Origin: an uncultured Planctomycetia bacterium
Lineage (GTDB): Bacteria; Omnitrophota; Gorgyraeia; 1-14-0-20-64-10
Reading direction: 5' to 3'
Length of the DNA stretch: 64,000 nt
NCBI GenBank assembly: GCA_964597545.1
Contig: CAZQXN010000002.1
Location: forward strand, 88,234 to 152,233
Made by a program: the position numbers and the translations under genes. This document shows positions 19,282-64,000 of the stretch, in pieces. Numbering within the stretch: position 1 is the first letter of the stretch; each line of letters starts with the position of its first letter. Below the pieces are notes generated by a model that was not told the origin of the DNA, did no database searches, and saw only the letters and a program-made list of their open reading frames with translations.

Positions 19282-19305
19282 GTGTACCCGGTACCGGTTT
19301 AGGGG

Positions 19306-28266: not shown

Positions 28267-28304
28267 GAGTCTGACGCTTTGGTACCGGCAAGAGACCCAT
28301 TGCT

Positions 28305-28331
28305 GTACCAAAGGGTCAGACCCTTTGGTAC
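28305..28331 (+). repeat. 27-bp near-perfect palindrome gtaccaaagggtcagaccctttggtac in the permease-nagA spacer (REP-like; a related half-copy lies at 34553-34579 after the GH94 gene)
   Basis: Self-complementary except at the central base. It shares GTACC ends and a 'gggtcagaccc' core with the 4324-4362 repeats. Confidence 0.75.
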
Positions 28332-28343
28332 AAGTGAGGATGG

Positions 28344-32070: not shown

Positions 32071-32102
32071 GGTACCTGGTACCAATTACAGGTACCGATT
32101 TT
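32071..32102 (+). promoter_or_regulatory. Palindromic GGTACC-core motif (ggtacctggtacc ... ggtaccgattt) 15-45 nt upstream of the GH94 start codon. Candidate operator, or a REP-family element.
   Basis: The same 'aaatcggtacc(a/t)ggtacc' unit recurs at 45785, 45927 and 45954 in this window. Confidence 0.35.
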
Positions 32103-34568: not shown

Positions 34569-34687
34569 CCCCTACGTACAAGAAGGTAACCCGTTACCCC
34601 TTTCGGGGTAAGAGAAAATGTTAGGTATAATTAAATCTAGTTCACACCCTTGACTTTTAACGGGTTAGAGGGTATATTTTAACTACA

Positions 34688-45774: not shown

Positions 45775-45784
45775 CCTTAAAATC

Positions 45785-45797
45785 GGTACCAGGTACC
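45785..45797 (+). repeat. ggtaccaggtacc palindrome in the 46-nt spacer between the two largest genes. It is the first of three closely spaced copies; the others are at 45927 and 45954.
   Basis: 'aaatcggtaccaggtaccaaag' in the intergenic spacer. Confidence 0.8.
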
Positions 45798-45820
45798 AAA
45801 GAAAAAGACACGACGAGATT

Positions 45821-48800
45821 ATGAATGGTTTAGACAACAGAAAAATCTGGATTCGACTCAGCGCCTGGGTGGTGATCCAGGCGCTGGTTGTTACCCATCT
45901 TTCCCCGGCCTTTGCTGAACCCAAAATCGGTACCAGGTACCAAGATCAGAAATCGGTACCTGGTACCAAGACCTTGCGGGCAAGCCAACGGGAGTCCAAG
46001 GGGGGCCTTGAGGAACTCAGAGAGGCCCTCACCGAAGACGCTCCTCAGGCGCCTACCGAAACTTCCCCTGCTTCCGGTTTGGAAGAGACGATGGTGGATG
46101 CAGGGGGAGTTCATGGCCCCGGTTTCGGGCTTCTGCTTGAAGCGGATGAGGCGGCGTTGGGGCGTTATGGGACGGAAGCGGCCAAGGAGTTTGCGAAAAC
46201 AGGAGTTCCGGTTCCCAAGCTGGGCGAGGGCGAACGGGTCGGACGCTCCAGTTTGTCTTTTTCCGGAAGGGCGAACGGAATCTTCGGCCGCGCCAAGATC
46301 GGGCAGTTTCAGCTGAATGCAGAGGAGCGCCACCGCCGGCCGCAGGCGGCAGCGACCCGAAACCGGCTTCAAGCGGGCTTGAACTTCTTAGCCGGTCAGC
46401 AGCGGCGCGAGAGAGCCCAAAGTGAACTCGTCCTTGAACTGCTCCCCTTAATCACCCCCCTGGTTCGCCTTAACGCCTCTGCGGCGGCGCTGAGGAGCGC
46501 TGAGCGCCGGATGGATGAGCTCATTGATCGGTTGGATGCTCTCGGGGAGGGCAGGGGAGTCCGCGCTGAGGTTGCCCGTCAGCTTCAGGCACATCTTGAG
46601 GCGTGGAGAGGCGGCGCCGGGGAAAATCAACTCATGACTCAGGCGCAGAGAGTTCTGCTCGCCCAGCGCGTGGATGCCTTAATCCTGGAGGGTCAGCTCT
46701 CTGCTGGGGCGTTGCAGCAAGCAGAGCGGCTCCAAGAACAGCTGGAGCAGGAGCGCTACGGGGTCTATGAAGATCAAGCGCCAGAGAAGCAAAAAGGGAT
46801 TTCTTTCAACGGAGTCTCTTTGATCGCGCATCTGATCTCTTTTGCCCGGATTCCGACCCAGCGCTTAGCCCAGCGCCTTGCCCAGAGCAGCGCCAAAGGG
46901 AGAATCCCCTTGGAGCTGTGGGTAGATCACGATCGCCTGCTGGACATTCCGCCGTTGTCTGATTTGCGGTACCGGGGCGAGGAGCGGGTGATGCGCCTGG
47001 ATTTGACCACTCCTCACAGGGTCAACGGTTTTGATGCTGGCGGGCAGTTGTATGGTTTGGCCCTCTTTAATCAACTTCAGGCTGTGGTTCAAGCCGCTGA
47101 GCCGGCCGGACCCACTCCTCCCTGGTTGGACCCGGTGGAGTTGGGCGCCAAGGAGAATCTCTTAACGAGCTTTACCTGCTATGAGACCTGGGCCCCTCAA
47201 GCTCAGCAGGCCCTTGCTCAGACCTTGAAGGATCGCCACATCGACAGCGGCCACCATTTCAGATGGTTCCTGACCAGCGGCGCTTATGGGACGCCGCTGG
47301 AGAAGGAGTTGGCGGCCGAGCGGCTCATGGGCCGGACACGGCTTGTCCTGGAATATGACCAGGGTGATCCGGATGATCCCGAGTCGATCATCTCCATACT
47401 CGAATCCGAAACCGATCTGGAGGTTTTGAGCGATCGGATCGCACCCCTACTCACAGGCAGCGCCAGTCCGGCAATGGCCGCGGCCAATGCCGCACGAGTA
47501 GGGCGCTGGGCGCAGAGCACCGGCCGACTGCTGGTGGGCACCCGAGCGGGACTTGCCTCCTTTGTGGAGGCGATTGCGATGGCCGGAGCCCGCCAGCTTT
47601 CCGTGAAGGAGTTGGAAGCCCAAGTCCGGGGCTTGGTGGCTTGGCTGGATGAAACCCGGGTGGATCTCCAGACTCCGGAGCTTGGGGCGGTTAGAGATTT
47701 CAGTGCGGTCAGAGGGGTTGCGATGGAGTTGGTGAACCTCGCCGGCCAGAAGACCGTCTTTGATGCCCAGCTTCAGGGGGCGATTCAGCGCTTTGACGCG
47801 CGGCTTGGAGAATTCCATGCCTCGGTAGTGAAGGAGCTGCGCTCCTTAAGAACAGAACAGGCCGGGGTCATAGCGCGAGAGAAGGCGGCGAGCGGCCGCT
47901 CCAGGCGCGAGAGCCGTTTGGCCCGGGATCTTGCCGTGATCCAAAAGAAGGTGGACCAGCTGGATGGCATCATGAGCGCTCTTAAAGAGGCGCGGGCTCA
48001 AGCTCCCAAGGGAGAGCCCGTCCAGGTCATCATCTTCCAGCGGCCTTCGGCCAGAGGGGTGCGCAACATTGCCGTGGGCGCTACCGGCAAGGACATCTAC
48101 TTCTCTACCGATCCCAAGCTGAATGCTCTCTTAGCGAAAGGCGCCCACAACGCCCACTTCACCCCATTTGAGCGGGTTTATATTGCCGTGGTGGATGTCC
48201 TGGTCGAACCCCTTCCGGCATACGCCAATTTCTTCATGCTTGAGCTGAAGGGCGGCCGGAATGAGCTGGTTCCCTTTGTGGACCGCAAGGCGATGCTCGC
48301 GATGTTTTCCAACTCATCCGACAGCATGCGCCAGAACATCCGGCACCGGTTTGAGTCGTGGTGGATCGGCATGGCCCAGCGGATTGTGGCGCGCCAGATG
48401 CAGGCAGAGGACGAAGTGGAGCGGATCCAGCGAGAGCACGGGGTGGATGAGGCCGATGCGCTCCGTTGGCTCATCTGGGAAAGGGGTTGGGAGCCGCTGG
48501 TGGGGCAGGTGGCGGCGGTTGCGGAGCGGACGCGCGATAATCTTCTAGAGCAGGTTTTTTCCCTCAAGGGAAAGTACCTGATCGATGAGCGGGATGCCTT
48601 GGAATTGGCGGTTCGGGATGATAGCTCAACCCAGAATCTCTTAGGCCGCCTGCGGGATCAGGCGGAGGCGGCCGATGAGCCGTTTGACCAGTTTCTGGAC
48701 ACCTTTACCAGGAGGCACCGCCTGATTCAGCGGGGCAGGGTACTGGCTCAGCGCGCCCTGGAGAGACCCCAAGGCATGTTCCAGGTCCATAATCTCACCA

Positions 48801-51800
48801 CCATGGGTCCTTTTGAGACCGCGACCAGCAACCGGGAGGTGCTGGAACGATCTTTCGCGGCCGGCAATGTGGTGGATCATTACCGGCTGGACGGCAAAGT
48901 CCGAGCCATCTTAAGACATTGGAATGACCGGACGACCGCCGTCGCTGAAACTGTAGTCCGGGAGTTGGATTACAGCGGCTATCTGGATGAGGCGATTGAA
49001 GAGTTTCGCGGCAGCCCCTCCAATCCGAAAGATCGGGCACGCGGATTGCGCTCCATCATGGACAGCTACCCTGAGGTGGGGGATGAGGTGATCAAGATCG
49101 TCCTGCTCCTTGAAGCGCAGGAAAAGCGGCGCTGGGAGGGGCGGCTGGTTGAAGCGGCCGGAACACTCATGGAAAGCGCCCCCTACCAGAAAGAAGCAGA
49201 GGATCTTGAAGCTGTTGCCGGGGAGAACGGCTGGGATCTCCAGACCCCGGAGGGGCGTTTCCGGGCCACCTTTGAGGTATTAAAGCGTTCCTCTCCCTTG
49301 CGCGAGGCGGCAATCTCCCAAGCTGGACCGATTCGCTCGGCTGCAGGGGATCTTGTGGAGATTGAGGCGGTCGAGGAGAGGGTCAGGTTTCATACCGAGA
49401 GTCCGACCCAACAAGAAGACTGGCGGCTTCGGGCTGCGCGGGCAGTGCTGGATGACTTCGGGGTGGAGCCTGCTTCCGGAAAGAACCCTCTTGAAACCGT
49501 TGAGGCAAACCCCGATTACCAGAGGGCCTACCGCGCCTCTCTCTATTCCTGGGCCAGGGATGAAGTGATCGAGACACTTGGTTTGGCAGAGGCGCAGGAG
49601 GATTTTCTCTATCTTCGCAATGCCGGCTCCACCGGAATGGGGCTTTTGACCGCTCGCGAGCAGGCGATCTGGGAGACGGGCTTAAGTCACGAGCTGGACA
49701 ATCCCCGCTTTCAGTATAACGCCACCGGACCCGCCCAAGGTTTTCTCCAGGGAGCTTCCATGAGCCAGATCGACACCGGAAGGGATCAAGTTCCCTCGGT
49801 GATTGGGCTCAGGAAGATGGTGGCCGGTCTGGACGTCAGGGCGACAGCCGAGGCAGCGCGCGTCTATGAGACCTTTAACCTGGCTGGGGTTACCCGGATG
49901 AATGATCCCAGGATAGAGGAGATCTTGAAGGTTGTCGCCAACTTGCTCTGGGGAGCCCATCACTACCTCACAGAGGGGATCCACGTCAATATCCAGGCAG
50001 TGGGCGGGGACACGATGCCGATGGCGCATGAGCAGGCGGTGGCTGAGAACATGGCCGCTGACCTGGGGGCAGCGATCAGGCGGCACGCGCCCGCCGGCTT
50101 TAACTGGACCCTGGAGCGGTTTGTGAGGGAGTGGAACCTTCGCTTGGACCGGCTGATCAAGAACGGGCTTTGGTTCTACGGGGGTTTTTGCATCTTAAAG
50201 GAGCCCAACCTCCTTTTTGCGGCGATCAAGGCAACACTGCATCCGGAAACGCGCAATCAGATGCTGGAGGCCTTTGGGGTGCCTCCCCAACTGCGGCCGG
50301 AGGTGCTGGCGGATCTTCGGCGCGCCATGCGGATGCGTCAGGCCTTTGAGAGCGAGGAGGAGTGGACCGAGCATGCCCACCGCTTCTTGATGAGCCGACA
50401 AAAGGTCTATTTTGAGAAGCTTCTTCCGGTCGCAGAAACCCAAGGGCCGGGCACCACCCTTTCAACCACCCTGCATCTTCCGCGGCTTCCGGCCCTGCTA
50501 AAGTATCTGCAGCTTCGGGGGATCATTGCGGAGTCGGGGAGGCGCCAGGATGAGCGGACCCTTCAGTTCCGGTTGGCCGATTGGGTCAACAAAATGCTGG
50601 CGCAGGCCAGCATCGTCAACCGGATGGGGCTGGTGCGCAAAATTCATGAGACCCGCCGGGTCCTGGAGGAGCTGGGGGTTCCAATGTCTGAGGCGGTCAT
50701 CGTCAGGGGCGCTCCTTATAAGGCCGGCTCTGAGCTGGAGTACGACGCTTTTCTTAAAGCCATTTTTGCGATCACCGATGTGCGGGGTTCCCCGGGCATT
50801 TACATCCTTTTGATCGACAGTTTGCTTGGCAAGGATGGATTTTTCGATGAGTTTGATCGCGAGGGGAAGGAGCTGGTGCGGGAGCTTCTAGGCGGAGATG
50901 CCGGGTTCATTCCGCCGGCGGATGTCCGGTTTGTCGGACCGGGTAGCATCGGAGATGCCTACGATTTTGTTCCCCGGAACATACAGCAGAAGCATTATGG
51001 CGGAATGGATCTCAACACCATTCACAAGGAGGCGGTTGAACTGCTTGGACGGCACGGGATCAGCAGGGAGCAGATCCGCGCCGCCGCGCAAGAGCATGGG
51101 GCTGATCTGACCAAGTGGAGCGTCTTGAACGACCTTGATGCAGGGGACCGGGAGGAGGTGCTTCAGGCATTGGCCGGTTGGCGGTTGATCCTAGCCAACG
51201 GAGAGCGAGGTCTTTTCCGCAGCTACGCCCAGGCGATCCAGGGAGCCCATGTCATTGATCTGGGCATTCCAGAGCCGGAGCTGCTGGATTTGCTGGATGA
51301 GCCAACTCGGCTTCTAGGCCTGGCGCGCCAGGGCCGGGGACCGGACGCGCCGGTGGCCTTGATTGACGCGACCGCCGGATCCGCTGACTCTGCCTTAGGG
51401 ATCCGGCAGCCGATTTGGCCCAAGCTCAAGGAGCTCCTCGCCCTGGGGAGGAGGGTGGATGTCGAGGGTAAACCCTATTACACGGTGGGCTACGGAGGCT
51501 CTATCGATGAGACAGTTCAGCAGGCCCGGATAGAGCAGGAGGCCCAGGGCACCTTCGGGGAGGATCTGGAGGCGGCCCTCCTTGCCGGTGATTATGAAAC
51601 AGCGGATCGGCTCTTCACGAACTTTCAGGGCTGGGTCCGCAACAACAACAAGCACAATGAGGCGCAGGACGATCTAAGCTGGGTTATCGGAAAGCGCATG
51701 GGCGGGCAGGATGCCAGGACTGAGCCGACCCTTCCTGGGGAGAAGGGCCTCCGTACCGTCCGCAGGTTTGACATCCAGGCGCGCGTGATGAGCCGGCTGG

Positions 51801-54800
51801 CCGCCGAGGATTTTTCCCTGGCGCAGGCGAATACGGCGGATCTGGTGATGGCAGGGTTGTTTTATCGGTTGAACGGCCGGCTCAGCCGAGAGGAGCTGGA
51901 TGCACGCCTCTCAAGGCTGGCCCAGGCGCTTGAGGATTACCGGACCCATACCGGAGGAGATCCAACCAGGAAACCGGCGATTGTCAATGTCAGCCAAGAC
52001 GACGTTGATTTTGTTGCCCAAAAGGTTCTCTTGACCCGCTATGAGCCGGATCGAGAGGAAGAGCAGGAGCGGGTTCTTGCTACTGGGCAGCGCGGTGCCG
52101 GAAAAGCGGTAGAACAGGGGGCCGAACGCGCAGTGCAGGCCAAACGCGCGGCTCGGGTTTCAAGCAGCCGGGTTGCGGCTCAGCGCACTCAGCAGAGGAA
52201 GGCTTTCCAGGCGGCCAGGGACGGGAAGGCCGGCAGCGGATTGGAAGAGGTGTCTGAGGGGGTGGATCAGGCCATGGAGGCAGTTTCAGCCCATGGCGTG
52301 CCGTTGGCTCAGATTACCCCTGAGGCCTTCGGGCGGTTTCTGGGGCATGCCCAAACAGCGGTGGAGGCGCTGGTGGATGCTGTGCTGCCGCCGGATACCT
52401 CCTTGACCGCTGAGCAGGCCGAACTCAGGCGCCAGGCCCTCGAGTTTTCGCACCAGTTCTTCAATGACGGAGGGGCAATTCGCCGGGAAGCGTATTACGA
52501 GAGGCAGGGGGGCGCCAATGTCGGTTTGGGTCCGGCGCTCGGAGAGCTGGCCTGGCAGGCCAGGGAGGATGAGGGGCTTCGCGAGACAGTGGCCCAGGTG
52601 GAAGTGCTCCTTCAAACTGCGATGTTTGTGGATGCCATGGTCGAGGTCGAAACCCCGGCCCGGTTCTATGAGCAGCTGGTGGAGATCTTTGAGATGACGC
52701 TTGACAGCCATCGCTTTTACGCCTTGCCTTACCTCTGGTCTGAGCGGGAGCGGGGGCTGGCCTTTTCCGGCTATTCCTACGATGAGAAGTTTGCCCTCTC
52801 TCGCCGTCTCTACGGATGGCTCTACCGGTATCTGCATGCCCAGTTCCTGGAAAGGACCGAATTCGGACAGATGCCGGCGGAATACGTTGATGCCGTGCTG
52901 GGCGATGCCACCCGGGGTGTCTGGCACATCGGGATTGGCCATCTAGAAAACGAAGACCTTCAGCACTGGATGAGTTTCAAGCGGTTCCGAGACCTGGCCT
53001 TCTGGAGGAATGAGCATTACATGCTTCCCTTTGTGCTGACGGGGGCCTCTCCGACTGTCTTTAAAATGGAGAGCCGAACCAACCTCATCTTTACCTACGG
53101 AATGGGGGATATGACGGTGGCCACCCACTTGACCCGCGCCCCTCTGCTGGAGAAGCACGATACCAATGTTTTTCAGACGGCCTATCCTGTCCATGCCGAA
53201 ACCGGTGATGACACGCACCCGCTGGAGCCCCAGATCCATGACGGGCTGACCTATGTTTCGCTGAGACGCCTTCACGAGATCTTGGCCGGCATCGGCACGC
53301 CGGGCGCTGAGATAGACAGAATTTCCGGCGGAATTGTCCGGCAATTTGAGGAGGAGATGCGGCGTCAGGGTTACAACGAGCGCCAGATAGAAGCTGTCAA
53401 GGCCAGTCCCCACGGGATTGCTGTGCCGATCCTCGTTCAATTCTCGCAGCCGGCGGCGGTTCACGGAGGATATGTCCATGATTTCCGGCGGGAGAGAGGC
53501 CCGTTTGATCGTGACGGAGGTCACTGGAACCAGACCACCTTGACCAACGCCTTTACCTTTGCCGAGAGATTCACCTGGGAGTCGCTGGCCGGAAGCGGTG
53601 TGATGCGCCCCTGGCAGATGAACATTCTTCACCAGGAATACAGGGATTGGGTGGAGGAGGGGCTCAGCACAGAGCAGATTGCCGATAAACTGCTGGCGCG
53701 CATCGTTGATTTCATGAACAGCACCCCGCGCTTAACCCATGAAGGGCGCTTGGTCACTCGGGCAGAGATGGAGTCGGGCGGGCGCCAGATGCTGATTGCG
53801 CTGTTGATGCAGGGCAGGGAGTTTGTCGAGAAGGATCTTGAGTTGGTTGTGCACCACGCCTTAGGTATATTGCGGGGACAGAATGCGGTCTTCAAGGAGT
53901 TCTTAGAGTCCTACGCGACCCAGTACTTGACGCGTGAAGCCCAAGAGATGATCGCCGAGTGGTTTTCCAGGGTGCGCGGCATCCCCGTCAGCCTCGACCA
54001 CTATCCGCTCACCGCCCTCTTTGATTACAGCAGGGCGATCATGGTGCTGGGACCTGACGGATACGAAGTCCCCTACCTCATTCTGGTCCTTGCCACGCAG
54101 GAGATCGCCAACTTCGGCATGCAGGGGGGGCTCTTTGTCTTAACCCCGGAGATGATCCGCCCCCACTATCGGGAAGCGTACATGGATGCTTTGGTGGGGG
54201 CTGCCGACGCCTCTATCAAATCCGAGAACCAATTCTTGGACGATGCGCAGCGCCGCGAAGAGATCCTAAGAGAGTTTGGCAGATTGTATGAGGTAGAGGA
54301 GCTTGACGACATCATCGCAACTCCCAGGAGAAATCTTGCCGGGGTGGCCGATTCCGACTCTCACTACCAGATGGTAGATGCGAAGCTCATGCTCACGGAT
54401 GATGCCGAGGGGAATCTGCGCTGGTATTGGGACGAGGTCGCCGAGCGCCGCCTCTTTCTCTTTGATCTGGAAGACAACCCCAATGCCGACGTTGCCATCT
54501 TTGATGAGAGCGGTTCGCCGGTCACATGGGATGCTGAGCATCCCATCCCGATGTGGGAGAAGCCCGATCCAGCGGATGAGAGCACCTGGAAGCCAATCCC
54601 TTATTATTACAAGGATGCTACCGGCCAACAGCATCAAATCCAGATCGCCTACGCGGCCAAGCTCGAGCGTAACCCCGGCCAAGGGCTGATGGGCCCTTAC
54701 GACAGGATGCTTCCGCTTCACCGAAAAGGAGAGGGGGCAGAGCGCTTGCTTGCCGCCATGGGGCAGATGGGCGCCCAGGTCATGGCAAACCGCGCCAGTA

Positions 54801-57800: not shown

Positions 57801-60800
57801 CGGCCGTTGTCGAGGAGGACCTGCAGGGGTTGCTGGACGGTTTGCTGGCCGGTTTCACCCCTCTTCTGGGGGCGCATCAGGGTCAAGACGCAAAGGCTTT
57901 TCGGAGGCAAGAGCCGCAGGTTTTTAGCGCGCTTCAGATGCAGTCGGTCATCCCCATGCGCCAAATGGCGCTCTATCAATACGAAGAGGGTAGGCGTATT
58001 CAAGCCTATGTTGAGGCTGCCCGGCGAGGGGATGCCAAAACTCTTGTTGAGCTCTACCGTCAGGCCCATGACGGAGACCGGGCGCTCTGGAGTTTGGGGC
58101 CGGGCGGTGAGTTCGTCTTGACCCCTTGGGGTGAGAGCCAACCCAAAGAGGCCTTCTTCCGGAGCATCCCTGAGATGGATGAGCTTGCGGATCAATTCCG
58201 GGCGCACATGGAAGGCCTTTTTGCAGAGAGGATGGGCACCCCGGTCGCGGAGCTGCGCGTCTTGGCGGCCGGTTTGGGCGGGGCCTTTGCTCTGGGTGTT
58301 CGAGGGACAGATGAGGTACCTGTTGAGGAGGCGGTAGCTGCCGCGAAGAGGTGGTTTGACGAGCGCAAGCTGGAGGTCATTGAGGTCAGGCCCGGCGGGG
58401 GGGCAATGACCGTCGAGATGCCCACTTCACCCCCCACCTCCGCTTCTGCCACCGGCCAGGAGGAGATGTTGGGAGGGGTGCAAGAGCAGATTCGGCAGGC
58501 CAGCCCGCCAGGGGTGACGTTCGATCCCCGGCCTCGCGGCATCCAAGCGAATGGCAGGACGGCTTCTCAACAGGAGTTCAGCCTCCTCAGTTTTGTCTGG
58601 CAGCCATCTTCCGCGGTGGATGGTCTAAGCGCCGCAGAGCAGCTGCGGGCGGCCTGGCGCCAGGAAGGATTTCCTCCGGAGGCGCGGATACAAGGGGGCC
58701 CACATTTCCTCAATGTAGCCCTCCTGGATAAGCTCGATACGATGAAGAGTATTCTAAGGGAAGAGCTTCCAGACAGAGAGGTGGCTATCATTGCGGGGGA
58801 TGTCCCTGTCGTGGACTTCATCCGAGAGGATCAATTGGAGCAGTTTCCGCTTCAAGATTTTGTTCAGGTTTTGGTTCAGGGGCGGGGTGCGCCGGAACCA
58901 GAAGAGTACCCCCATGTTGCCCACGCCGGCAAAGGTGGCGACGGTGTAGATGATCTGCTTCGGGCCCTCACAGAGGCGATGGCAGAGGAGGGTGCGACGT
59001 ACGGAGACCTTCCCGAGTGGTTGTCCGGGTCCCTGCCGGATACGATGAAGCAAAAGCCCATCGACCCCCAGAAACTGGCGCTCTTTCTTGATGTGGACGG
59101 TACGGTGCTGGAACCGAAAGACACCTTTGATCCGGCGCAGGACGGTGTCCAAGGCCAGCATTTTCAAGGCGAGCGGGTGAAGCTGCTGACACAGCTTGCA
59201 GGCAAAGGGGTTGAGACCGCATTCCTCACAGCCAAGAATGCATTTGGCGATGTTGCTGCGGGGGGCGTTCATGACGATAGCCTGCGGCTGGTTGTTCCTC
59301 TGGGCAGTGCCCTGGAGGCGGCCGGTGTCCCTCAAGGGAGGATTCGATACGACGGGCTTTTTGGGCAGCAGCAAGCGCGGTACCAACCCGCCGGAGGGCT
59401 TCTCTGGAGTCGGGCAGAACTGCCGGAAGGCAGGCAACCCTTCACCCTCCGGGAAGCGGCAGCCATTCTTCGCAAACAGCTGGAGGTTGTCCAAGCCAAT
59501 CTTCAATCTGCCGGCTTGCAGGAGAATCCCCTTTCCCAGGTGGAAGGAGAGATCCGGGATGCAGGCAAACAGTTGGGATTGGACCTCTATCCGCAGTGGG
59601 GTGCCATCGATCCGGATGGCAGAGATGCTGCTCACAATCCGCTCTTTCTGGTCATCGAGTGGGACTCTGACCGATCCAACGCCGTTGATGCTGAGAAAGC
59701 TGGCGAGCAATTAAAGACCGATTTAAAAGCAATCCATCCCCTATTACCAGGCAGGGTGGTTCCGAGAGGCAACCTACTCAGCGTGGTTCTGCCATCAAAG
59801 CTGTGGAGTTTAAAGAGCATTGTAGAAACAGGATTTCCAAACAAACGAGTGGTGTTGGTCATTGGGGACCGGCTGAATACAGATTTCTACCATCCAGGGT
59901 TGGGTCACTCATTTCTGGACGCTCCTTACGCCTATGCGCAATTATTGCTGCGCAAGGTCGATCCAGCCTCGATACAACCTTATCCTAACCTTGTGATGAC
60001 CGAACAGGAAACAGAGGCAGGTTTCGATCAGGTCATGCAAGTGTTGCTCGATGCCATCGCCTCAAAGGGGCGCTATGAAACGCTGCCTTTCCTAGGTCCT
60101 GCCTTGAGCGCTCAGGGGGTGACAGGGCCGATCCAGCCGTCAGAGATCCTGATCTTTTCCGATGTGGATGGCACGATTTTGAGCTCCTTGGATACGTTTG
60201 TAGAGGCTGAGGATGGTGTGCAGGAGCAGACATTCCAGGCAGATCGGCTGGATCGAATGGTTCAGCTGGTTGGTCGCGGGGTTGGTTTCCAAACTTTGGG
60301 GGGGAAGGTGCTCCACGACCTCTCGGGGACCCGCGTTCGGACGGATGCCCAGCGGCTCATGGATCCCTTTGTGGCCACCCTATTGGATCGGAAGATCCCC
60401 TTGCGTGAAGTGGCCTACAATGGCGGTTTAGGGGTTCAGCGGGCTCAACCCATTGCCGCCGGTGAGTACAATTTCAGTAGGGGTGGTTTCCCAACGGAGT
60501 TGGAGGAGCTCACCGATCAGCAAGCGATTCAAGTTTTTCACCTGATGCTGGAGGCCATCCAGGCGAACATTCGTCCGGATGCCACCGGCCAAGAGGAGGT
60601 CATCCCGCTTCCTGCGGGGGCTGCCCAAGGGCACCTTGTTATTCTAACTCCCGATATGGTTGAACCTGCGATCGGGGCCTTGTCTATCTTGAAGCCTCCA
60701 CCCGGCGAAACCCTACAACTGGCCGCCATTGTTTCCAATGCACGTCAGGCAGCCGTGGTTACTGTCGGTTTGGAAGAGGCAGGGTTAACCCTTGCCCACC

Positions 60801-61009
60801 CGATGGTGAATCTCCAGGAAACCGGTTGGACCTTGGGAGAAGCGATCGTGGATATCCAAATTCGCGCCTGGGCCGATGCCATAGAGACTTTTGTGGTACA
60901 AACCTTCGGCCAGCTTAAAGGTTTGGGAGCTTACCTTAAGATCCCAGCTGCCTCCATTCGCACCTGGTTCAAGCGAGTCGAACGAGCCGTGCTGGGGATT
61001 CAAGCATAA
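45821..61009 (+). CDS. Giant secreted multidomain protein (5062 aa). It has a signal peptide and the conserved post-signal module. Embedded enzyme-like folds: an ATP-grasp (~55600-56415), a GHMP kinase (~56900-58420) and two HAD-like DxDGT modules (~59070-59330 and ~60140-60400). Recurrent G-L/Q-E-E linkers punctuate it.
   Basis: Single 15-kb frame with ATG start. N-terminus 'IWIRLSAWVVIQALVVTHLSPAFAEPK...LRASQRESKGGLEEL'. Confidence 0.7.
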   Translation: MNGLDNRKIWIRLSAWVVIQALVVTHLSPAFAEPKIGTRYQDQKSVPGTKTLRASQRESKGGLEELREALTEDAPQAPTETSPASGLEETMVDAGGVHGPGFGLLLEADEAALGRYGTEAAKEFAKTGVPVPKLGEGERVGRSSLSFSGRANGIFGRAKIGQFQLNAEERHRRPQAAATRNRLQAGLNFLAGQQRRERAQSELVLELLPLITPLVRLNASAAALRSAERRMDELIDRLDALGEGRGVRAEVARQLQAHLEAWRGGAGENQLMTQAQRVLLAQRVDALILEGQLSAGALQQAERLQEQLEQERYGVYEDQAPEKQKGISFNGVSLIAHLISFARIPTQRLAQRLAQSSAKGRIPLELWVDHDRLLDIPPLSDLRYRGEERVMRLDLTTPHRVNGFDAGGQLYGLALFNQLQAVVQAAEPAGPTPPWLDPVELGAKENLLTSFTCYETWAPQAQQALAQTLKDRHIDSGHHFRWFLTSGAYGTPLEKELAAERLMGRTRLVLEYDQGDPDDPESIISILESETDLEVLSDRIAPLLTGSASPAMAAANAARVGRWAQSTGRLLVGTRAGLASFVEAIAMAGARQLSVKELEAQVRGLVAWLDETRVDLQTPELGAVRDFSAVRGVAMELVNLAGQKTVFDAQLQGAIQRFDARLGEFHASVVKELRSLRTEQAGVIAREKAASGRSRRESRLARDLAVIQKKVDQLDGIMSALKEARAQAPKGEPVQVIIFQRPSARGVRNIAVGATGKDIYFSTDPKLNALLAKGAHNAHFTPFERVYIAVVDVLVEPLPAYANFFMLELKGGRNELVPFVDRKAMLAMFSNSSDSMRQNIRHRFESWWIGMAQRIVARQMQAEDEVERIQREHGVDEADALRWLIWERGWEPLVGQVAAVAERTRDNLLEQVFSLKGKYLIDERDALELAVRDDSSTQNLLGRLRDQAEAADEPFDQFLDTFTRRHRLIQRGRVLAQRALERPQGMFQVHNLTTMGPFETATSNREVLERSFAAGNVVDHYRLDGKVRAILRHWNDRTTAVAETVVRELDYSGYLDEAIEEFRGSPSNPKDRARGLRSIMDSYPEVGDEVIKIVLLLEAQEKRRWEGRLVEAAGTLMESAPYQKEAEDLEAVAGENGWDLQTPEGRFRATFEVLKRSSPLREAAISQAGPIRSAAGDLVEIEAVEERVRFHTESPTQQEDWRLRAARAVLDDFGVEPASGKNPLETVEANPDYQRAYRASLYSWARDEVIETLGLAEAQEDFLYLRNAGSTGMGLLTAREQAIWETGLSHELDNPRFQYNATGPAQGFLQGASMSQIDTGRDQVPSVIGLRKMVAGLDVRATAEAARVYETFNLAGVTRMNDPRIEEILKVVANLLWGAHHYLTEGIHVNIQAVGGDTMPMAHEQAVAENMAADLGAAIRRHAPAGFNWTLERFVREWNLRLDRLIKNGLWFYGGFCILKEPNLLFAAIKATLHPETRNQMLEAFGVPPQLRPEVLADLRRAMRMRQAFESEEEWTEHAHRFLMSRQKVYFEKLLPVAETQGPGTTLSTTLHLPRLPALLKYLQLRGIIAESGRRQDERTLQFRLADWVNKMLAQASIVNRMGLVRKIHETRRVLEELGVPMSEAVIVRGAPYKAGSELEYDAFLKAIFAITDVRGSPGIYILLIDSLLGKDGFFDEFDREGKELVRELLGGDAGFIPPADVRFVGPGSIGDAYDFVPRNIQQKHYGGMDLNTIHKEAVELLGRHGISREQIRAAAQEHGADLTKWSVLNDLDAGDREEVLQALAGWRLILANGERGLFRSYAQAIQGAHVIDLGIPEPELLDLLDEPTRLLGLARQGRGPDAPVALIDATAGSADSALGIRQPIWPKLKELLALGRRVDVEGKPYYTVGYGGSIDETVQQARIEQEAQGTFGEDLEAALLAGDYETADRLFTNFQGWVRNNNKHNEAQDDLSWVIGKRMGGQDARTEPTLPGEKGLRTVRRFDIQARVMSRLAAEDFSLAQANTADLVMAGLFYRLNGRLSREELDARLSRLAQALEDYRTHTGGDPTRKPAIVNVSQDDVDFVAQKVLLTRYEPDREEEQERVLATGQRGAGKAVEQGAERAVQAKRAARVSSSRVAAQRTQQRKAFQAARDGKAGSGLEEVSEGVDQAMEAVSAHGVPLAQITPEAFGRFLGHAQTAVEALVDAVLPPDTSLTAEQAELRRQALEFSHQFFNDGGAIRREAYYERQGGANVGLGPALGELAWQAREDEGLRETVAQVEVLLQTAMFVDAMVEVETPARFYEQLVEIFEMTLDSHRFYALPYLWSERERGLAFSGYSYDEKFALSRRLYGWLYRYLHAQFLERTEFGQMPAEYVDAVLGDATRGVWHIGIGHLENEDLQHWMSFKRFRDLAFWRNEHYMLPFVLTGASPTVFKMESRTNLIFTYGMGDMTVATHLTRAPLLEKHDTNVFQTAYPVHAETGDDTHPLEPQIHDGLTYVSLRRLHEILAGIGTPGAEIDRISGGIVRQFEEEMRRQGYNERQIEAVKASPHGIAVPILVQFSQPAAVHGGYVHDFRRERGPFDRDGGHWNQTTLTNAFTFAERFTWESLAGSGVMRPWQMNILHQEYRDWVEEGLSTEQIADKLLARIVDFMNSTPRLTHEGRLVTRAEMESGGRQMLIALLMQGREFVEKDLELVVHHALGILRGQNAVFKEFLESYATQYLTREAQEMIAEWFSRVRGIPVSLDHYPLTALFDYSRAIMVLGPDGYEVPYLILVLATQEIANFGMQGGLFVLTPEMIRPHYREAYMDALVGAADASIKSENQFLDDAQRREEILREFGRLYEVEELDDIIATPRRNLAGVADSDSHYQMVDAKLMLTDDAEGNLRWYWDEVAERRLFLFDLEDNPNADVAIFDESGSPVTWDAEHPIPMWEKPDPADESTWKPIPYYYKDATGQQHQIQIAYAAKLERNPGQGLMGPYDRMLPLHRKGEGAERLLAAMGQMGAQVMANRASIAAAPTPAPNDLQPQLLVNPTYTPIPTGERISLEAGETGEEWAQWAWERASADLGLSGLEEGDAIAPASLSVVLTHYLVAGVTARYNSSPADLQEALRNPTRAAHMARAAERFLADAELAGHLEEAGVRLTGDQPITATLQDSSYRSRVVQLAMDYLQLEERFTPLAVAPEPLSAEELETLFTDQTVYAGIFSVSPLAEQLELATLQRDFDRFSPDGKAVRVIGVSKEDLNRDATANRFLVADPSGRVREVRSLDSVKIDRAHVLELDHAKELADHREIWELLDALLVPVVNPWESAAKADDKFQTHAILRDAGIATPLAEKAVGIISARKKVEEALTSLVRRHLERQGALQQPGVHPVSLFAQPNIGSRGENLGFGAFEVVVREGEALEIHPEQRGWSDLLEHADRLIKRRDAVLTEERGSATYQGRNVVLKLLALSPDGGRSFQVESGVALVARGPGEFASPAHGAEFVEINAALRDLRFPEGQSLTQGSLSAILGTAAEAARVIGAGQILGVDLLLEFQEDRMVAVVKEVNARPGELWRFNRIEPLDEPATGPSTPLRTGLEEGASAPLTSSLLPQMAAPGVTGIRKTYPLWQWQRMVSDPEGSGFKAMLAEEFHADQIDEEIVRVRTLIDAAMGREVQIRSQEAEPLFDPGAPVALSFAPGRVRYKGGHTDIKGSGEKTINAATHFGVWALTQVLHDPKTAGRVIADNLAPEHDPFAFGLFDEGILPPVGIRQIRPDWLNFAETHGSPYKWEANIKGVPAFIRTDYLDPTGDRRRAMEGWGIRLLLSESTIPTGKGLSTSSALPAVFVWGIQPFLPPEVRLSPQQLNDVDYVAYYGGDRAGTADMTTINLGALDTILVLDSFPEGVAATVTLPPDFRYLIVDSGIERLDAASQEIRTQNFAAFIKSMTGMGPAFATIWLRHLSRSRPREYRQLEELLLTHEAGHPFGLLRELSETGALTDPRYNPMVDGDTADAREEFIRKVMGEIPNGMTVEDIRTAVVEEDLQGLLDGLLAGFTPLLGAHQGQDAKAFRRQEPQVFSALQMQSVIPMRQMALYQYEEGRRIQAYVEAARRGDAKTLVELYRQAHDGDRALWSLGPGGEFVLTPWGESQPKEAFFRSIPEMDELADQFRAHMEGLFAERMGTPVAELRVLAAGLGGAFALGVRGTDEVPVEEAVAAAKRWFDERKLEVIEVRPGGGAMTVEMPTSPPTSASATGQEEMLGGVQEQIRQASPPGVTFDPRPRGIQANGRTASQQEFSLLSFVWQPSSAVDGLSAAEQLRAAWRQEGFPPEARIQGGPHFLNVALLDKLDTMKSILREELPDREVAIIAGDVPVVDFIREDQLEQFPLQDFVQVLVQGRGAPEPEEYPHVAHAGKGGDGVDDLLRALTEAMAEEGATYGDLPEWLSGSLPDTMKQKPIDPQKLALFLDVDGTVLEPKDTFDPAQDGVQGQHFQGERVKLLTQLAGKGVETAFLTAKNAFGDVAAGGVHDDSLRLVVPLGSALEAAGVPQGRIRYDGLFGQQQARYQPAGGLLWSRAELPEGRQPFTLREAAAILRKQLEVVQANLQSAGLQENPLSQVEGEIRDAGKQLGLDLYPQWGAIDPDGRDAAHNPLFLVIEWDSDRSNAVDAEKAGEQLKTDLKAIHPLLPGRVVPRGNLLSVVLPSKLWSLKSIVETGFPNKRVVLVIGDRLNTDFYHPGLGHSFLDAPYAYAQLLLRKVDPASIQPYPNLVMTEQETEAGFDQVMQVLLDAIASKGRYETLPFLGPALSAQGVTGPIQPSEILIFSDVDGTILSSLDTFVEAEDGVQEQTFQADRLDRMVQLVGRGVGFQTLGGKVLHDLSGTRVRTDAQRLMDPFVATLLDRKIPLREVAYNGGLGVQRAQPIAAGEYNFSRGGFPTELEELTDQQAIQVFHLMLEAIQANIRPDATGQEEVIPLPAGAAQGHLVILTPDMVEPAIGALSILKPPPGETLQLAAIVSNARQAAVVTVGLEEAGLTLAHPMVNLQETGWTLGEAIVDIQIRAWADAIETFVVQTFGQLKGLGAYLKIPAASIRTWFKRVERAVLGIQA
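45923..45970 (+). repeat. Two tandem near-palindromic 19-nt units (atcggtaccaggtaccaag / atcggtacctggtaccaag) lying in frame in the post-signal-peptide linker of the 5062-aa gene
   Basis: They encode 'KIGTRYQDQKSVPGTK'. The units differ only at the central base, and each contains two KpnI-like GGTACC sites. Confidence 0.8.
55600..56415 (+). other. ATP-grasp-like domain
   Basis: 'VVNPWESAAKADDKFQTHAILRDAGIATPLAEKAV', 'LFAQPNIGSRGENLGF', 'ILGVDLLLEFQEDRMVAVVKEVNARPG' match the ATP-grasp B/C-subdomain pattern (K-loop, 'vvKP..Gs.G.Gv', 'GvD......g.yvlEvN..PG'). Confidence 0.5.
56900..58420 (+). other. GHMP-kinase-like domain (sugar / small-molecule kinase fold)
   Basis: Motif II 'IPTGKGLSTSSALPAV' (P-x-G-x-G-L-S-S-S-A) at ~57183-57221. 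C-terminal motif 'LRVLAAGLGGAFALGV' at ~58264-58299. Confidence 0.5.
59070..60400 (+). other. Two repeated HAD-like modules (DxDGT nucleophile motif) inside the 5062-aa protein
   Basis: 'LALFLDVDGTVLEPKDTFDPAQDGVQGQHFQGERVKLLTQLAGKGV' and 'ILIFSDVDGTILSSLDTFVEAEDGVQEQTFQADRLDRMVQLVGRGV' are internal paralogs ~1.1 kb apart. Confidence 0.45.
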
Positions 61010-61017
61010 AGCATAAT

Positions 61018-61039
61018 GGGGACGGTCCATTTTGGGACA
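61018..61039 (+). repeat. 22-nt exact repeat 'ggggacggtccattttgggaca', identical to the left arm of the terminator hairpin at 30534-30555. Here it has no right arm. It lies between the two giant genes and overlaps the start of the third giant gene.
   Basis: Direct comparison of the two loci. Confidence 0.85.
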
Positions 61040-64000
61040 CTCTAACATTCGCACAATACGTTGGATTCGCCTCAGCGCCTGGATTACTTTCCAGGCGCTG
61101 ATTGTTACCGGCCTTTCTTCTGCCTTTGCCGAACCAAAAGCCAGTATCGGGTACAAGCTTGTACCCGATACTGAAGCGCTGCGAGCGCCCCAGCGCCAAG
61201 AGGGCGGGCTTGAGGAGATCCAAACATCCCTGTCCGCCGGCCAGGAGGAGATGCCTACCCGGTCTGAAGGGGCGTTTGATGTTGTGGATGGCCCCACCAC
61301 GTTGGTGAAGAATTTGCCCTCAGATACTACCCCTGAACGGCCCTACCGGGGAGATGTGGCGAGTTCAGTCCTAGGATTGGCCGACAAGATTCTGCCGAGG
61401 CGGGTTGATACCCAGATTGCCTTTGTGGCGGTGTACAACGATGCGGGGATCGCTGATTCCTTTGTGTTCGACATCGCAGATCCCATCGCCAGTGTCCGCG
61501 ACTTTGCCGAGGCCAAGGGGATTGCGCTTGATCAGCTTATGGTTGCCATGGATGTGAGCTCTTCTGCGGTCAACACCGAATGGCTCCCCGATGCGCTGGT
61601 GGAGATCGGAATCCCCCGAGACAACATCATCGCTTTCCCCCAGATCCAGCAGGCGATCAACGTGGCCCTCAACAACAATCCCCGCCGGAAGCTGCATGAG
61701 CGCTCCCCGTGGTTTACCAAGTCGTTCGACATCTTGATTGGGAGTGTGGGGGCAACCGAAGTGTCCGGATGGATCAATGCCATTGCGCCCCTGCCCGGCG
61801 TGCACGCCCGCCTTTTCTTTGCACCATCTGCCGCCCGAAAGGGTCCTCGTCAAGCCCGAGATATGGACTCCCTTTACAGCATGCGGTTGACGAATCAGAG
61901 GAATGTTGCCGGCGAGCGAAGGACGACGTTCGAACTGGCGGATCTGGTTGACATGGGTGACCCCCACAAGATGTACGCCTCCACCCTGGTGACCGGCTAC
62001 ATGAATATTCCGGGAATAGAGTATGACACCATGGGGGTGACCACTTACACCAAGGTGTTTCAGCAGGGGTGCGATCCGGTCATCTTGGTGGATCGTTTCA
62101 ACTACGCGATCTCAAGGCAGGATGCCCGGGCGCAAGCCATCGCTGTCACTGAGGGTTTCGAGGGGCGGTATCCAGACGTTTACGAGTGGCTGCTGCATCA
62201 TGGGGGATCGATTCCGCCTCGTCCGGTCCAGCACGACGTCGTTAAAGCGGCTTCAGCTGCAGCGATCCCGACTCAGTGGGACAAATCCGGATGGCCGGAG
62301 GAGTTTTTGGGGCTGAGTCTGGTTTCCTCCCGGGGGTATGACCTTCAAGGCAATCCTGTAAAGACGCCGTTTCCCATCCGGGGCGACGGACACCGGGATA
62401 CCCAGGCCGCTGCCATTGCCTCCGGCTGGCTGCGCGGAATAGCAATCGGCGGCCAAGTGGATGCTGAGCAAGCCAAGCAGGCGGCCGACCGGCTTGCGCG
62501 GGATGCCATGGGCGAGAGGATAGCGTTGAACCCTGCCCCCCACCCAGTGACAGTGGGGGCCTTTGAGGGGGCCAGAGACGGTTCTGCTTCCTGGAAATAT
62601 GGGATGGTGCTGGACGCCGGCCAGGAGGAGCGCTCAGAGCTTCAGCAGAGGGTGGCCGAGGTGCCGAAAGGGAGCCTGTTTCTGCCCCTGGAGCTTGGCG
62701 GCACGACCCTAAGGGCTGCCCTGGCGGATGCGGGGACGAATGAGGTGCTTACATCGTTGGAGCGCGAATGGAAGTTTCTTCCCGGAAGCAAGCCGAGCGG
62801 CTCAGAGAATATAGCCCCCGTGAATGAACAGATCCGCGCTCTCGTTGAGGAGCTCACCCGTTTGGCGGGAATCGACATTCAGGATGTGAGCCGCTTGCCG
62901 ATCAGCGCCACAGGGGAGTTTAACGAAGGGACGACCGGGGGCACTTTTGAACGGCGGGCCGGGTATGTCCGGCTTCAGTTTTATTTGCCCTATACCAGGC
63001 TCAATATGCTGGCACACATTGCGGGCACTCTGGGTGTCGCAGAGGATCGGTTCAGTCTGTACAGCGATGTAAAAACCGCCCTCGTTGCTGAGGAGCGTTT
63101 CGGAGGGCACGGTTTAGGGCCGGGCAGGGCAGGGTATCTGACGGTCAGCACCGGCGTCGATTTGGCCCTGATGAGCACAGACGGCGAGCCCATTCCCATA
63201 GAGCTGGAGCAGTACCCTGTGAGCGGCGGTAAGAATGTCGGACACTTCGCCTCAGGAGCCCACTTGGCCGGCTTGGCAAGGGAGGAGATTGGACGCACCG
63301 GGGATAGCGTCATCATGGAGTTGGTGGGTGATGACCCCTCCCAGATCGACACTCAGGTCTTGGGTCAAGCATTTCGAGCAGGAAGCGCGCTTGCCATTCG
63401 GTTGTACCAGCAGGCGGCTCAAGTCATAGGAGAGGCCATTGTTCAGGCGGTCCAGAAAGAGGAAGACCACCTCGCAAGGGAAGGGGGCCTTCGAATCGTT
63501 GCCGGCGGCGGGGTCATAGAAGGGGTTAACAGTTTTATGCCGCTGAGCGGTTCTGAGCGGCGCACCATGGTCACAATGCTTCAGGATGCCGTGGATGGCG
63601 CTCGCTATTCTGCCGGCATGGAAAGAGAGATTGAGATCGCGCTTTCTCGGTTGAAGCCCAACCACCGCGGTTTGCTTGGAGCTGTGGCGCTGGCCAGCGC
63701 CGGCCTGGAGGAGACGCCCGCCGCTTCTCTGGCTCATAAGATTACCCAGAATCTCAGCGGCGACATCGCCTCTCTGCTGCCGGCCCTGCAGATTCAAAGC
63801 ATGGATTTTATGGAAAGCGGAATTCCCGGGTGGGAGCGGCTGGTTTATACCCTTGCCGACGGATCCCACTGGAGGGGCGGCATCGTGCATGAGGATGTCC
63901 CGCGCGATCAGATTCATAAGACCGCCGCTGTCAGCCCCGGCAGCATGGTAAGGGGGGCTGCTACCCGGCTGAAGGCAGGCGCCACGGTCCTCAATACCGC
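61032..64000 (+). CDS. Third giant-family gene (3'-partial, >980 aa, runs off the window). It has a signal peptide and the conserved post-signal module, and a ROK/BadF-type ASKHA kinase-like domain at ~62680-63530.
   Basis: The six-frame track omits it because it has no stop. The frame was verified by translating several stretches ('WIRLSAWITFQALIVTGLSSAFAEPK', 'LQQRVAEVPKGSLFLPLELGGTTLRAALADAG', 'LTVSTGVDLALM', 'IVAGGGVIEG'). Probable TTG start at 61032. Recurrent 'GGLEEI', 'AGQEE' and 'SAGLEET' motifs. Confidence 0.6.
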   Translation, partial: MGHSNIRTIRWIRLSAWITFQALIVTGLSSAFAEPKASIGYKLVPDTEALRAPQRQEGGLEEIQTSLSAGQEEMPTRSEGAFDVVDGPTTLVKNLPSDTTPERPYRGDVASSVLGLADKILPRRVDTQIAFVAVYNDAGIADSFVFDIADPIASVRDFAEAKGIALDQLMVAMDVSSSAVNTEWLPDALVEIGIPRDNIIAFPQIQQAINVALNNNPRRKLHERSPWFTKSFDILIGSVGATEVSGWINAIAPLPGVHARLFFAPSAARKGPRQARDMDSLYSMRLTNQRNVAGERRTTFELADLVDMGDPHKMYASTLVTGYMNIPGIEYDTMGVTTYTKVFQQGCDPVILVDRFNYAISRQDARAQAIAVTEGFEGRYPDVYEWLLHHGGSIPPRPVQHDVVKAASAAAIPTQWDKSGWPEEFLGLSLVSSRGYDLQGNPVKTPFPIRGDGHRDTQAAAIASGWLRGIAIGGQVDAEQAKQAADRLARDAMGERIALNPAPHPVTVGAFEGARDGSASWKYGMVLDAGQEERSELQQRVAEVPKGSLFLPLELGGTTLRAALADAGTNEVLTSLEREWKFLPGSKPSGSENIAPVNEQIRALVEELTRLAGIDIQDVSRLPISATGEFNEGTTGGTFERRAGYVRLQFYLPYTRLNMLAHIAGTLGVAEDRFSLYSDVKTALVAEERFGGHGLGPGRAGYLTVSTGVDLALMSTDGEPIPIELEQYPVSGGKNVGHFASGAHLAGLAREEIGRTGDSVIMELVGDDPSQIDTQVLGQAFRAGSALAIRLYQQAAQVIGEAIVQAVQKEEDHLAREGGLRIVAGGGVIEGVNSFMPLSGSERRTMVTMLQDAVDGARYSAGMEREIEIALSRLKPNHRGLLGAVALASAGLEETPAASLAHKITQNLSGDIASLLPALQIQSMDFMESGIPGWERLVYTLADGSHWRGGIVHEDVPRDQIHKTAAVSPGSMVRGAATRLKAGATVLNT
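61143..61172 (+). repeat. Perfect 30-bp palindrome agtatcgggtacaagcttgtacccgatact lying in frame in the post-signal linker of the third giant gene. Its arms (cgggtaca/tgtacccg) match the REP arms flanking the RAYT gene.
   Basis: The sequence is self-complementary. It encodes 'SIGYKLVPDT'. It occupies the same protein position as the GGTACC units in the 5062-aa gene. Confidence 0.85.

Follow-up and report, generated by a model that had tools for sequence, protein, structure and literature searches.

The palindromic elements of Rickettsia, reportedly described by Ogata and colleagues in 2000, are said to be selfish sequences that lie in frame within protein-coding genes, essential ones included, usually at positions corresponding to surface loops or termini. 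They are not known outside Rickettsia and have no known partner among the REP-associated tyrosine transposases (RAYTs; REP, repetitive extragenic palindrome). Codogenic REPs, for example those of Opitutus terrae, are likewise found in frame, many of them near the N-termini of open reading frames (ORFs) (Di Nocera et al. 2013, PMC3733652); the tetranucleotides GTAG and CGTC define two described REP superfamilies, not REPs in general (PMC3733652). The REPINs (REP doublets forming hairpins) of the REPIN-RAYT systems of Pseudomonas and E. coli are almost wholly extragenic (Bertels & Rainey 2011, PMC3116915; PMC3337134). Here we describe a stretch of 64,000 nucleotides (hereafter the window) of contig CAZQXN010000002.1 from an assembly labelled as an uncultured Planctomycetia bacterium but placed by GTDB in the Omnitrophota, in which three consecutive giant ORFs begin with a similar leader and two of them carry GGTACC-core palindromes inside it. 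These palindromes are a REP/REPIN-type family tied to a RAYT gene in the same window (18709-19281), and we consider it probable (roughly 0.78) that they are copies of a selfish element which inserted in frame into the leader, at a variable spacer, and were tolerated there.

The three ORFs are G1 (36505-45774, 3089 aa), G2 (45821-61009, 5062 aa) and G3, which opens with a TTG codon at 61032 and continues past the window end (the public protein has 2232 aa). The start codons of the public annotation are those used here for the G2 and G3 leaders (P0008, P0009). The original prediction, made from the sequence alone, had described all three N-termini as having a basic n-region, an h-region and AxA, followed by LRAS/PQRE(S/Q) and GLEE; signal-peptide features, AxA, LRxxQ and GLEE are present in each of them. 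Two to four K/R residues precede the core, 12-aa Kyte-Doolittle maxima are 1.8-2.5, the signal peptides end in AFA, AWA or, in the gene P1 described below, VWA, and ∼80-85% of the residues of the post-signal region are polar or small. By these properties the leaders read as Sec-type signal peptides, with the cleavage site predicted from sequence.

In G2, the signal peptide MNGLDNRKIWIRLSAWVVIQALVVTHLSPAFA (45821-45916, forward strand, aa 1-32) is followed, right after AFA|EPK, by the palindrome cores GGTACCAGGTACC (45929-45941) and GGTACCTGGTACC (45955-45967), whose 13-nt arms are 100% complementary and separated by a 13-nt gap. The repeat unit is aaatcGGTACCwGGTACCaag, present in two copies (centre a/t), and together these form a REPIN-like doublet (45926-45970, forward strand; DNA fold -14.5 kcal/mol, z=-7) that is translated as IGTRYQDQKSVPGTK (aa 36-50) ahead of LRASQ (45974-45988) and GLEE (46004-46015). 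In G3, the signal peptide (61032-61130, forward strand, aa 1-33) is followed by a perfect 32-nt palindrome of 16+16 nt (61142-61173, forward strand; DNA fold -15.6 kcal/mol, z=-7.4), coded within ASIGYKLVPDTE (aa 37-48) and followed by LRAPQ (61179-61193) and GLEE (61206-61217). Its arms, AGTATCGGGTACA and TGTACCCGATACT, have no loop between them, which is atypical for a REP doublet, and 0.01 occurrences of its core would be expected by chance in the window. The G1 leader (36505-36750, forward strand) is without a palindrome: ...AVPAWA is followed directly by LRPTQ (36598-36612), with GLEE at 36739-36750. Perfect palindromic DNA after AxA in G2 and G3, and none in G1, had been predicted and was confirmed with full complementarity of the arms. 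The leader layout recurs in a fourth gene, P1 (4229-7537, 1102 aa), with a different palindrome (family 2) in the same relative place. Its leader (4229-4444, forward strand) reads ...KVWA, then two copies of AAGGGGTCAGACCCCTT at 4323-4363 coded as KGSDPFTPRRGQTP, then LRPAQ (4367-4381) and GLEE (4433-4444). Further copies of family 2 are intergenic (28265-28332) or lie across the stop codon of a GH94 gene (34552-34582).

The GGTACC palindromes belong to a family whose other copies in the window flank the RAYT gene or lie in the 5' leaders of the GH94 gene and G2. The RAYT-like Y1 (HUH) transposase gene (18709-19281, forward strand) matches Pfam Y1_Tnp with E=2.2e-13; its best NCBIfam family is REP_Tyr_transpos (NF047646; 67.7 bits, under the cutoff of 80), and IS200 scores 18.2 bits. 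Its translation contains SNHIHLAL, which we take to be the HxH (HUH-type) motif, and YIERNP, presumably also catalytic. The gene lies between two REP hairpins of the form GGTACCGGGTACA-N15-TGTACCCGGTACC, one upstream (18627-18667; DNA fold -17.3 kcal/mol, z=-6.4) and one at its 3' end (19255-19295), which are 98% identical over 47 nt. The tail of the RAYT ORF, ...NGTGYKCPF* (19255-19281), runs into its own 3' REP, so that the C-terminus of the transposase is itself REP-encoded. The G2 arm GGTACCAGGTACC and the G3 arm AGTATCGGGTACA each equal the RAYT arm at 11/13 positions, in agreement with the original prediction that the arms match the RAYT-flanking hairpins. The G3 match includes CGGGTACAA, and its two differences from the RAYT arm are both mirrored in the other arm, leaving the pairing perfect. 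In the window, GGTACCWGGTACC occurs four times versus 0.04 expected, and there are eight GGTACCNGGTAC sites (16 matches over both strands) versus 0.35 expected. A single REP unit occupies the space between G1 and G2 (45779-45799) and ends 21 nt before the G2 start codon, and GGTACC units at 32071-32096 read GGTACCGATTTTAA-cgtt-GGAGG-cttc-ATG, just 5' of the Shine-Dalgarno (SD) sequence and ATG of the GH94 gene, a placement that is also common among metagenome copies.

The features by which REP elements are recognized are largely present: a short palindrome repeated many times (8 sites in 64 kb; 53 metagenome doublets, see below), a RAYT gene flanked by the same palindromes and, in G2, an inverted doublet able to form a hairpin. 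A GTAG or CGTC tag is absent; the units read (A)AATC-GGTACC-N-GGTACC-AA(G) or GGTACCGGGTACA. A pattern scan covering one genome per species placed the RAYT-type hairpin at at least 114 loci in many phyla, among them Bacillota, Actinomycetota, Acidobacteriota, Bdellovibrionota, Gemmatimonadota, Omnitrophota and metagenome-assembled genomes (MAGs) labelled Planctomycetia. At ten loci of other phyla a RAYT homologue (25-36% identity) stands beside or between the hairpins, indicating that the link between hairpin and transposase is old and general.

Relatives of the G2 doublet show how the family behaves within genes. A doublet-pattern scan of metagenome data yielded 76 loci with 53 unique doublets, whose consensus is AAAATCGGTACCAGGTACCAAAnnGnCAATCGGTACCTGGTACC; the G2 doublet fits it, the centre bases are complementary in 46/53, and copies 87-91% identical to that of G2 were found in loci L083 and L093 (from an "uncultured Planctomycetia" MAG). 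Relatives of P1 and G2, with 32-38% identity, occur in the doublet loci as well. In-frame copies with a Pfam match spanning or flanking the insert were found in MurF, UppP, GltB, RsmD, MurE, TauE and ComEC, and another falls within the signal-peptide n-region of a BamA; for EamA and MutY, the best Pfam match does not reach the REP insert. Other in-frame doublets lie in ORFs that, judged by eye from the flanking translation, are presumably MutS, LeuRS, IleRS, RlmN, NadE, RecJ, RibF, ArgS and ATP synthase gamma (twice). GatA was confirmed by alignment with the Aquifex structure (PDB 3h0l_A), which leaves a clean 15-aa gap exactly at KSVPGTEVRRSVPGT. By an estimate made by eye, about a third of the 53 doublets appear to lie in frame within conserved genes, where they can survive because none of the six reading frames of the consensus doublet contains a stop codon. 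Twelve of the 53 lie at most 45 nt upstream of an SD sequence and start codon, versus 11% of random positions under a crude gene model, a modest difference.

Some single genes hold two or three separate in-frame REP inserts (L123/L149, L093, L083, L029), among them an ATP synthase gamma-like ORF, GltB, ComEC and a glutamate-synthase-like protein (named from flanks or Pfam). RsmD in L105 and L177 has the same insert site with slightly diverged sequence, an orthologous insert that persists between assemblies. An orientation bias of the intragenic copies, as a sign that sense terminators are avoided, was considered and dropped, as many units are themselves extended palindromes (AAATCGGTACCWGGTACCGATTT) and their orientation is ambiguous.

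The leader was compared with other proteins using a profile built from eight leaders and searched against 1.84 billion representative proteins (E<=1e-3). Of the 37 proteins matched, many of them 2,000-5,000 aa long, 36 matched at the N-terminus; the remaining match was weak and internal, in a protein whose own N-terminus lacks the motifs. The consensus consists of a signal peptide ending in P-A-[WYF]-A, a spacer of 0-12 residues (often x-P-x-x-x-T or DT), LRxxQ, a further 3-12 residues and [AS]GLEE. A named source is available for three members (Omnitrophota/Omnitrophica), and the rest are metagenome proteins. Three other routes gave nothing further: a homologue query with the first 500 aa of G2 returned no match, G2 itself included; a metagenome scan with the G2/G3 leader peptide patterns gave 203 pattern matches, none confirmed; and the literature searched on giant proteins of Omnitrophota mentions signal peptides but neither GLEE nor palindromes.

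Palindrome-coded spacer peptides were found only in G2, G3 and P1 of the 36 leaders, and not in the other 33. Several of these provide empty sites. P0010, whose signal peptide is identical to that of G2 at 25/32 positions, reads MNGLGNRKIWIRLSAWIVIQALVFTQTVPAYA|LRQPELAEQRAGLEE (...VPAYA|LRQPE) at the protein level. At the DNA level, P0032 reads ...LWA|ADT-LRTPQRQEGGLEEL (LRTPQRQEGGLEE without insert), for comparison with ...AFA|EPK + ASIGYKLVPDTE + A-LRAPQRQEGGLEEI in G3. The P1 homologues P0005 and P0006 read ...SSVYG|LRPGQPAESAGLEEL (LRPGQ) and ...APVFG|LRPAQNPEGSGLEEL (LRPAQ), and G1 itself reads ...AWA|LRPTQ. The palindrome-coded segments of 45, 36 and 42 nt comprise whole codons, are free of stops and are absent from collinear homologues, as expected for insertions.

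Taken together, these data favour the possibility, raised by the original prediction, of an in-frame REP insertion tolerated in a disordered linker: the palindromes belong to a RAYT-associated family, their flanks are constrained in a single frame (see below), 33 other leaders are without them, and the same family is found in frame in housekeeping genes. REP or REPIN copies, presumably moved by the RAYT, would have entered the spacer between AxA and LRxxQ as whole codons and would be carried as 12-16 extra residues (IGTRYQDQKSVPGTK in G2, ASIGYKLVPDTE in G3, KGSDPFTPRRGQTP in P1). Since the GGTACC core is stop-free in six frames and spacer lengths of 0 to 12 residues occur in the family anyway, such inserts would simply be translated, and they are most likely neutral passengers. 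The G2 and G3 insert peptides align (IG.Y...VP.T). One insertion, made before the leader was duplicated, would consequently account for them just as well as two, and it is not necessary to assume that this site was hit independently in each gene.

A number of points weigh against this reading. Copy counts for the source genome cover the 64-kb window only, the RAYT falls below the curated NCBIfam cutoff (67.7 vs 80 bits), the GGTACC core has neither the GTAG nor the CGTC tag that marks the REP superfamilies described so far (PMC3733652), and the P0010 empty site is known at the protein level. All three intragenic palindromes in the 64 kb lie in the leader spacer despite many other low-complexity linkers in the giants, a placement that tolerance alone does not obviously predict, and the G3 palindrome is perfect (16/16) with its two arm differences compensated, which neutral decay would not preserve. 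A preference for 5'-proximal insertion would help to explain the clustering in the leader spacer, given the GGTACC copies at the RAYT flanks and in the GH94 and G2 5' leaders, and the 12/53 doublets that precede an SD sequence and start.

The coding status of the palindromes is central to any choice between readings. They might belong to a 5'-untranslated region, with translation starting downstream and the apparent signal peptide being either spurious or encoded by an upstream ORF of its own. In favour of this, REPs assigned to the N-termini of ORFs often prove to be extragenic (PMC3733652), no strong SD sequence precedes the annotated starts in the window, and a Tat-like motif occurs further downstream in P1. 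We consider this highly improbable. A single frame runs without a stop codon from the signal peptide through the palindromes to LRxxQ/GLEE, and no consistent start codon was found between palindromes and LRxxQ in the window leaders. Similarity between G2 and G3 is confined to residues 10-84, and within it the 26 codons before the palindromes (WIRLSAW...AFAEPK) differ at four synonymous and six replacement positions, several of the replacements being conservative (V/I twice, I/F), as is typical of a signal peptide. After the palindromes, 8/10 conserved residues (LRAxQR, GGLEE) use different synonymous codons in the two genes. The blocks on both sides are thus constrained as protein in one frame with no stop between them, which indicates that the palindromes are translated; in addition, signal peptide, LRxxQ and GLEE are kept as a unit at the N-terminus of 36 proteins. 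A more restricted alternative concerns G3, whose palindrome could have arisen on native codons, either by inverted duplication of a local sequence or by template switching that corrected a quasi-palindrome. An xDT-LR spacer is common in the family (...DT-LR in P0011, P0017, P0032 and P0007), the right arm of G3 codes ...PDTEA-LR, a loop-less perfect palindrome is unusual for a REP, and no second copy of AGTATCGGGTACA was found within the 64-kb window. Nevertheless, the arms match the RAYT REP at 11/13 positions on each side, CGGGTACAA included, the encoded peptide aligns with the REP peptide of G2, and the site is that of a bona fide REPIN in the paralogue, making a native origin improbable.

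An unlikely alternative is that the REP hairpins have been co-opted and, with a neighbouring hairpin in the signal-peptide codons (H1, described below), make up a module of programmed RNA structure within the first ∼150 nt of the mRNA. Such a module might delay the ribosome around codons ∼36-50, at the moment when the signal peptide emerges, favouring co-translational targeting of proteins several thousand residues long, or might stabilize or process the 5' end of the cistron. H1 might then be a cis-acting timer of translation or targeting for very long secreted proteins, with REPs recruited into the spacer to reinforce or tune it, a proposal that we regard as doubtful; if true, selfish palindromes would have been domesticated as regulatory structures of a coding region. 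The position of 3/3 intragenic palindromes in the leader spacer is non-random, the adjacent H1 is conserved, the G3 pairing has stayed perfect through two compensated differences, and the placement of relative doublets ahead of SD sequences and starts (12/53 vs 11% of random positions) points in the same direction. RNA folding, the check suggested with the original prediction, showed H1 and the REP hairpin to dominate the 5' regions of G2 (z=-4.4) and G3 (z=-6.6), versus no excess structure in G1 (z=+0.49). On the other hand, the palindromes are missing from 33 other leaders, including the closest ones (P0010, P0032), the inserts are ordinary members of two different REP families and not a dedicated motif, cytoplasmic housekeeping proteins carry such elements at arbitrary loops, and the 5' region of P1 is not unusually structured overall (z=-1.3). 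Tolerated in-frame insertion remains our preferred account of the palindromes.

H1 itself is a different matter. The original prediction had noted a similarity of ∼80% between G2 and G3 over their first ∼90 nt, measured here as 77% over 93 nt, and within it a 10-bp inverted repeat, CAGCGCCTGG-N8-CCAGGCGCTG, at 45859-45886 in G2 and 61073-61100 in G3 (both forward strand). This repeat was recovered as the only two matches in the window versus 0.02 expected, with arms that reach 12 bp in G3 (61072-61101). For comparative analysis G2 and G3 were joined by six leaders that belong to the "...AW...QA[LF]" sub-family and come from three other assemblies. H1 is present in all eight leaders, and so in at least four assemblies, with varying loops and in a weaker form in L194 and L196a. 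When each leader was recoded at random with synonymous codons drawn according to the usage of its gene, leaving the amino-acid sequence unchanged, H1 was more stable than the shuffle mean in 8/8 leaders, the fractions of shuffles at least as stable being 0, 0.0013, 0.0023, 0.019, 0.037, 0.065, 0.081 and 0.137. In the eight-sequence alignment 91% of cells pair, versus 28-40% with the register slid, and three pairs have changed on both sides (e.g. GCC/CAG to GCU/CAA in L196b). Several cells are G-U, pairing only in sense RNA. Pair counts exceed the shuffle controls only moderately (21-36 of 500), and because the sequences are related to each other the evidence is good but not conclusive.

Synonymous sites therefore appear to be constrained to preserve H1, which is probably a functional RNA hairpin, separate from the REP elements, and most likely acts in the mRNA; translation timing, mRNA stability or protein binding are possible roles. 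The original prediction had offered a conserved 5' structure as its second explanation, and this holds for H1, with its eight leaders and synonymous support. It fails for the REP palindromes, as these are not conserved in the leader family. The related suggestion of attenuation did not survive, since terminator-like shapes occur only on the minus strand: no sense-strand hairpin followed by a U-run was found, an A-run preceding the sense hairpins. Searches of the window with Rfam 15 at gathering score and with a tRNA scan gave no match, and without an Rfam match or a sense-strand U-run H1 is not a classical attenuator. If H1 controls translation or export, it would bear on how cells handle proteins thousands of residues long.

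Beyond the leader, the giants have in common only a C-terminal domain of ∼150 aa. This domain is preceded by GLEE and lies at the C-termini of P0009-P0012, P0018, P0026 and P0031, and a common C-terminal domain of 183 aa is found in P0 (3593-4141) and P1 (6992-7537) at 74% identity. A leader and a C-terminal domain on either side of a variable middle resemble what would be expected of the substrates of a dedicated export or sorting system. The tetrapeptide GLEE is found 16 times in the ∼12,600 residues of P0, P1, G1, G2 and G3, versus ∼0.5 expected by our estimate; the sites include the four leader sites given above, a further one in G2 at 46076-46087 and 11 more. In most cases it stands between a P/A/S/T-rich linker and the start of a new module; it recurs in homologues and may mark a domain boundary or processing site. 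The idea that GLEE represents an SD sequence (GGAGG) with an internal start was rejected: the codons are not always GGAGG, there is no start at a constant distance, and the motif is kept through synonymous changes. Residues 191-668 of G1 are GlmS-like (SIS domain, E=1e-9, with a weak GATase_6 match), and the neighbourhood of G1 is rich in amino-sugar genes, including a NagA-like amidohydrolase, ROK and GH94 (Pfam) and a NagB-like ORF at 15860-16627 (from translation).

The P1 family differs in its N-terminal arrangement, a Sec-like leader followed by a Tat-like motif, which in P1 is SGFDRREFLKRGIAGMGAAGLGLAPL (4478-4540, aa ∼84-104) and in its homologues (P0003, P0004 and P0007 among the loci) RRQFLG or RRDFNK. 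Longer P1 relatives have internal units of GLEE/GVEE plus RRxFL (L160, nt ∼850-900 and ∼2700-2760), and P0004 has Pfam TAT_signal matches on record. A Sec signal followed by Tat-like signals within one ORF is odd. Composite palindromes TGTACCAAAGGGTC(A/T)GACCC(TTTGGTACA) at 28265-28332 and 34552-34582 fuse a GTAC motif with the GGGTCAGACCC motif of family 2. A 51-bp intergenic stretch between P0 and P1 (4142-4192) has counterparts of 92% identity in metagenome loci L119 and L174, and constitutes a further short repeat with small hairpins common to relatives. The closest P1 homologue (P0002, 60% identity) comes from an "uncultured Planctomycetia" MAG, and other homologues are named Candidatus Omnitrophota. 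MAGs that carry the "uncultured Planctomycetia" label and the same REP doublets include those of loci L078, L083, L093, L105, L111 and L192 (GCA_964373295.1 and sisters); this taxonomic label may be wrong.

The insertion of selfish palindromes into genes is a known phenomenon, to which these data add a REP class with a GGTACC core, a stop-free consensus doublet and a distribution over many phyla; the GGTACC core was not found as a repeat in the literature searched. For annotators, palindrome-coded peptides of the VPGT and GTRY type in these lineages are insertions and not domain features. The more novel by-products are the LRxxQ/GLEE leader family (36 proteins), which is undescribed, and the H1 hairpin kept at synonymous sites.

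Among the known systems, mRNA-programmed pauses near signal or transmembrane segments, reportedly found in E. coli by Fluman and colleagues and in yeast by Pechmann and colleagues (both 2014), resemble this locus by position only, H1 occupying codons ∼13-22 and the REP hairpin codons ∼36-50, as the signal peptide emerges. Stable hairpins are not known to play a part in such pauses, which depend on SD-like sequences or rare codons. The Rickettsia palindromic elements (RPEs), which are also mentioned in PMC3733652, have in common with the GGTACC elements that selfish palindromic DNA is tolerated in frame in protein-coding genes; they are ∼100-150 bp long, unlike the elements here, and unrelated in sequence. 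With the REPIN-RAYT systems of Pseudomonas and E. coli the locus shares a single-copy Y1 transposase gene between REP hairpins and inverted REP doublets as the dispersed unit, but the sequences are unrelated and the RAYT scores 67.7 bits against the cutoff of 80. The REPs of Di Nocera et al. too are short RAYT-associated palindromes, single or dimeric, found in frame and coding for ∼10-30 residues, and here as there most copies are intergenic, near gene ends (PMC3733652). The family described here differs in its core, GGTACC-N-GGTAC(C/A), without a GTAG/CGTC tag, and in that about a third of the 53 related doublets (judged by eye) appear to lie in frame in conserved genes. It differs also in that the position of the insert behind a signal peptide allows a positive argument for the coding status of its N-terminal copies.

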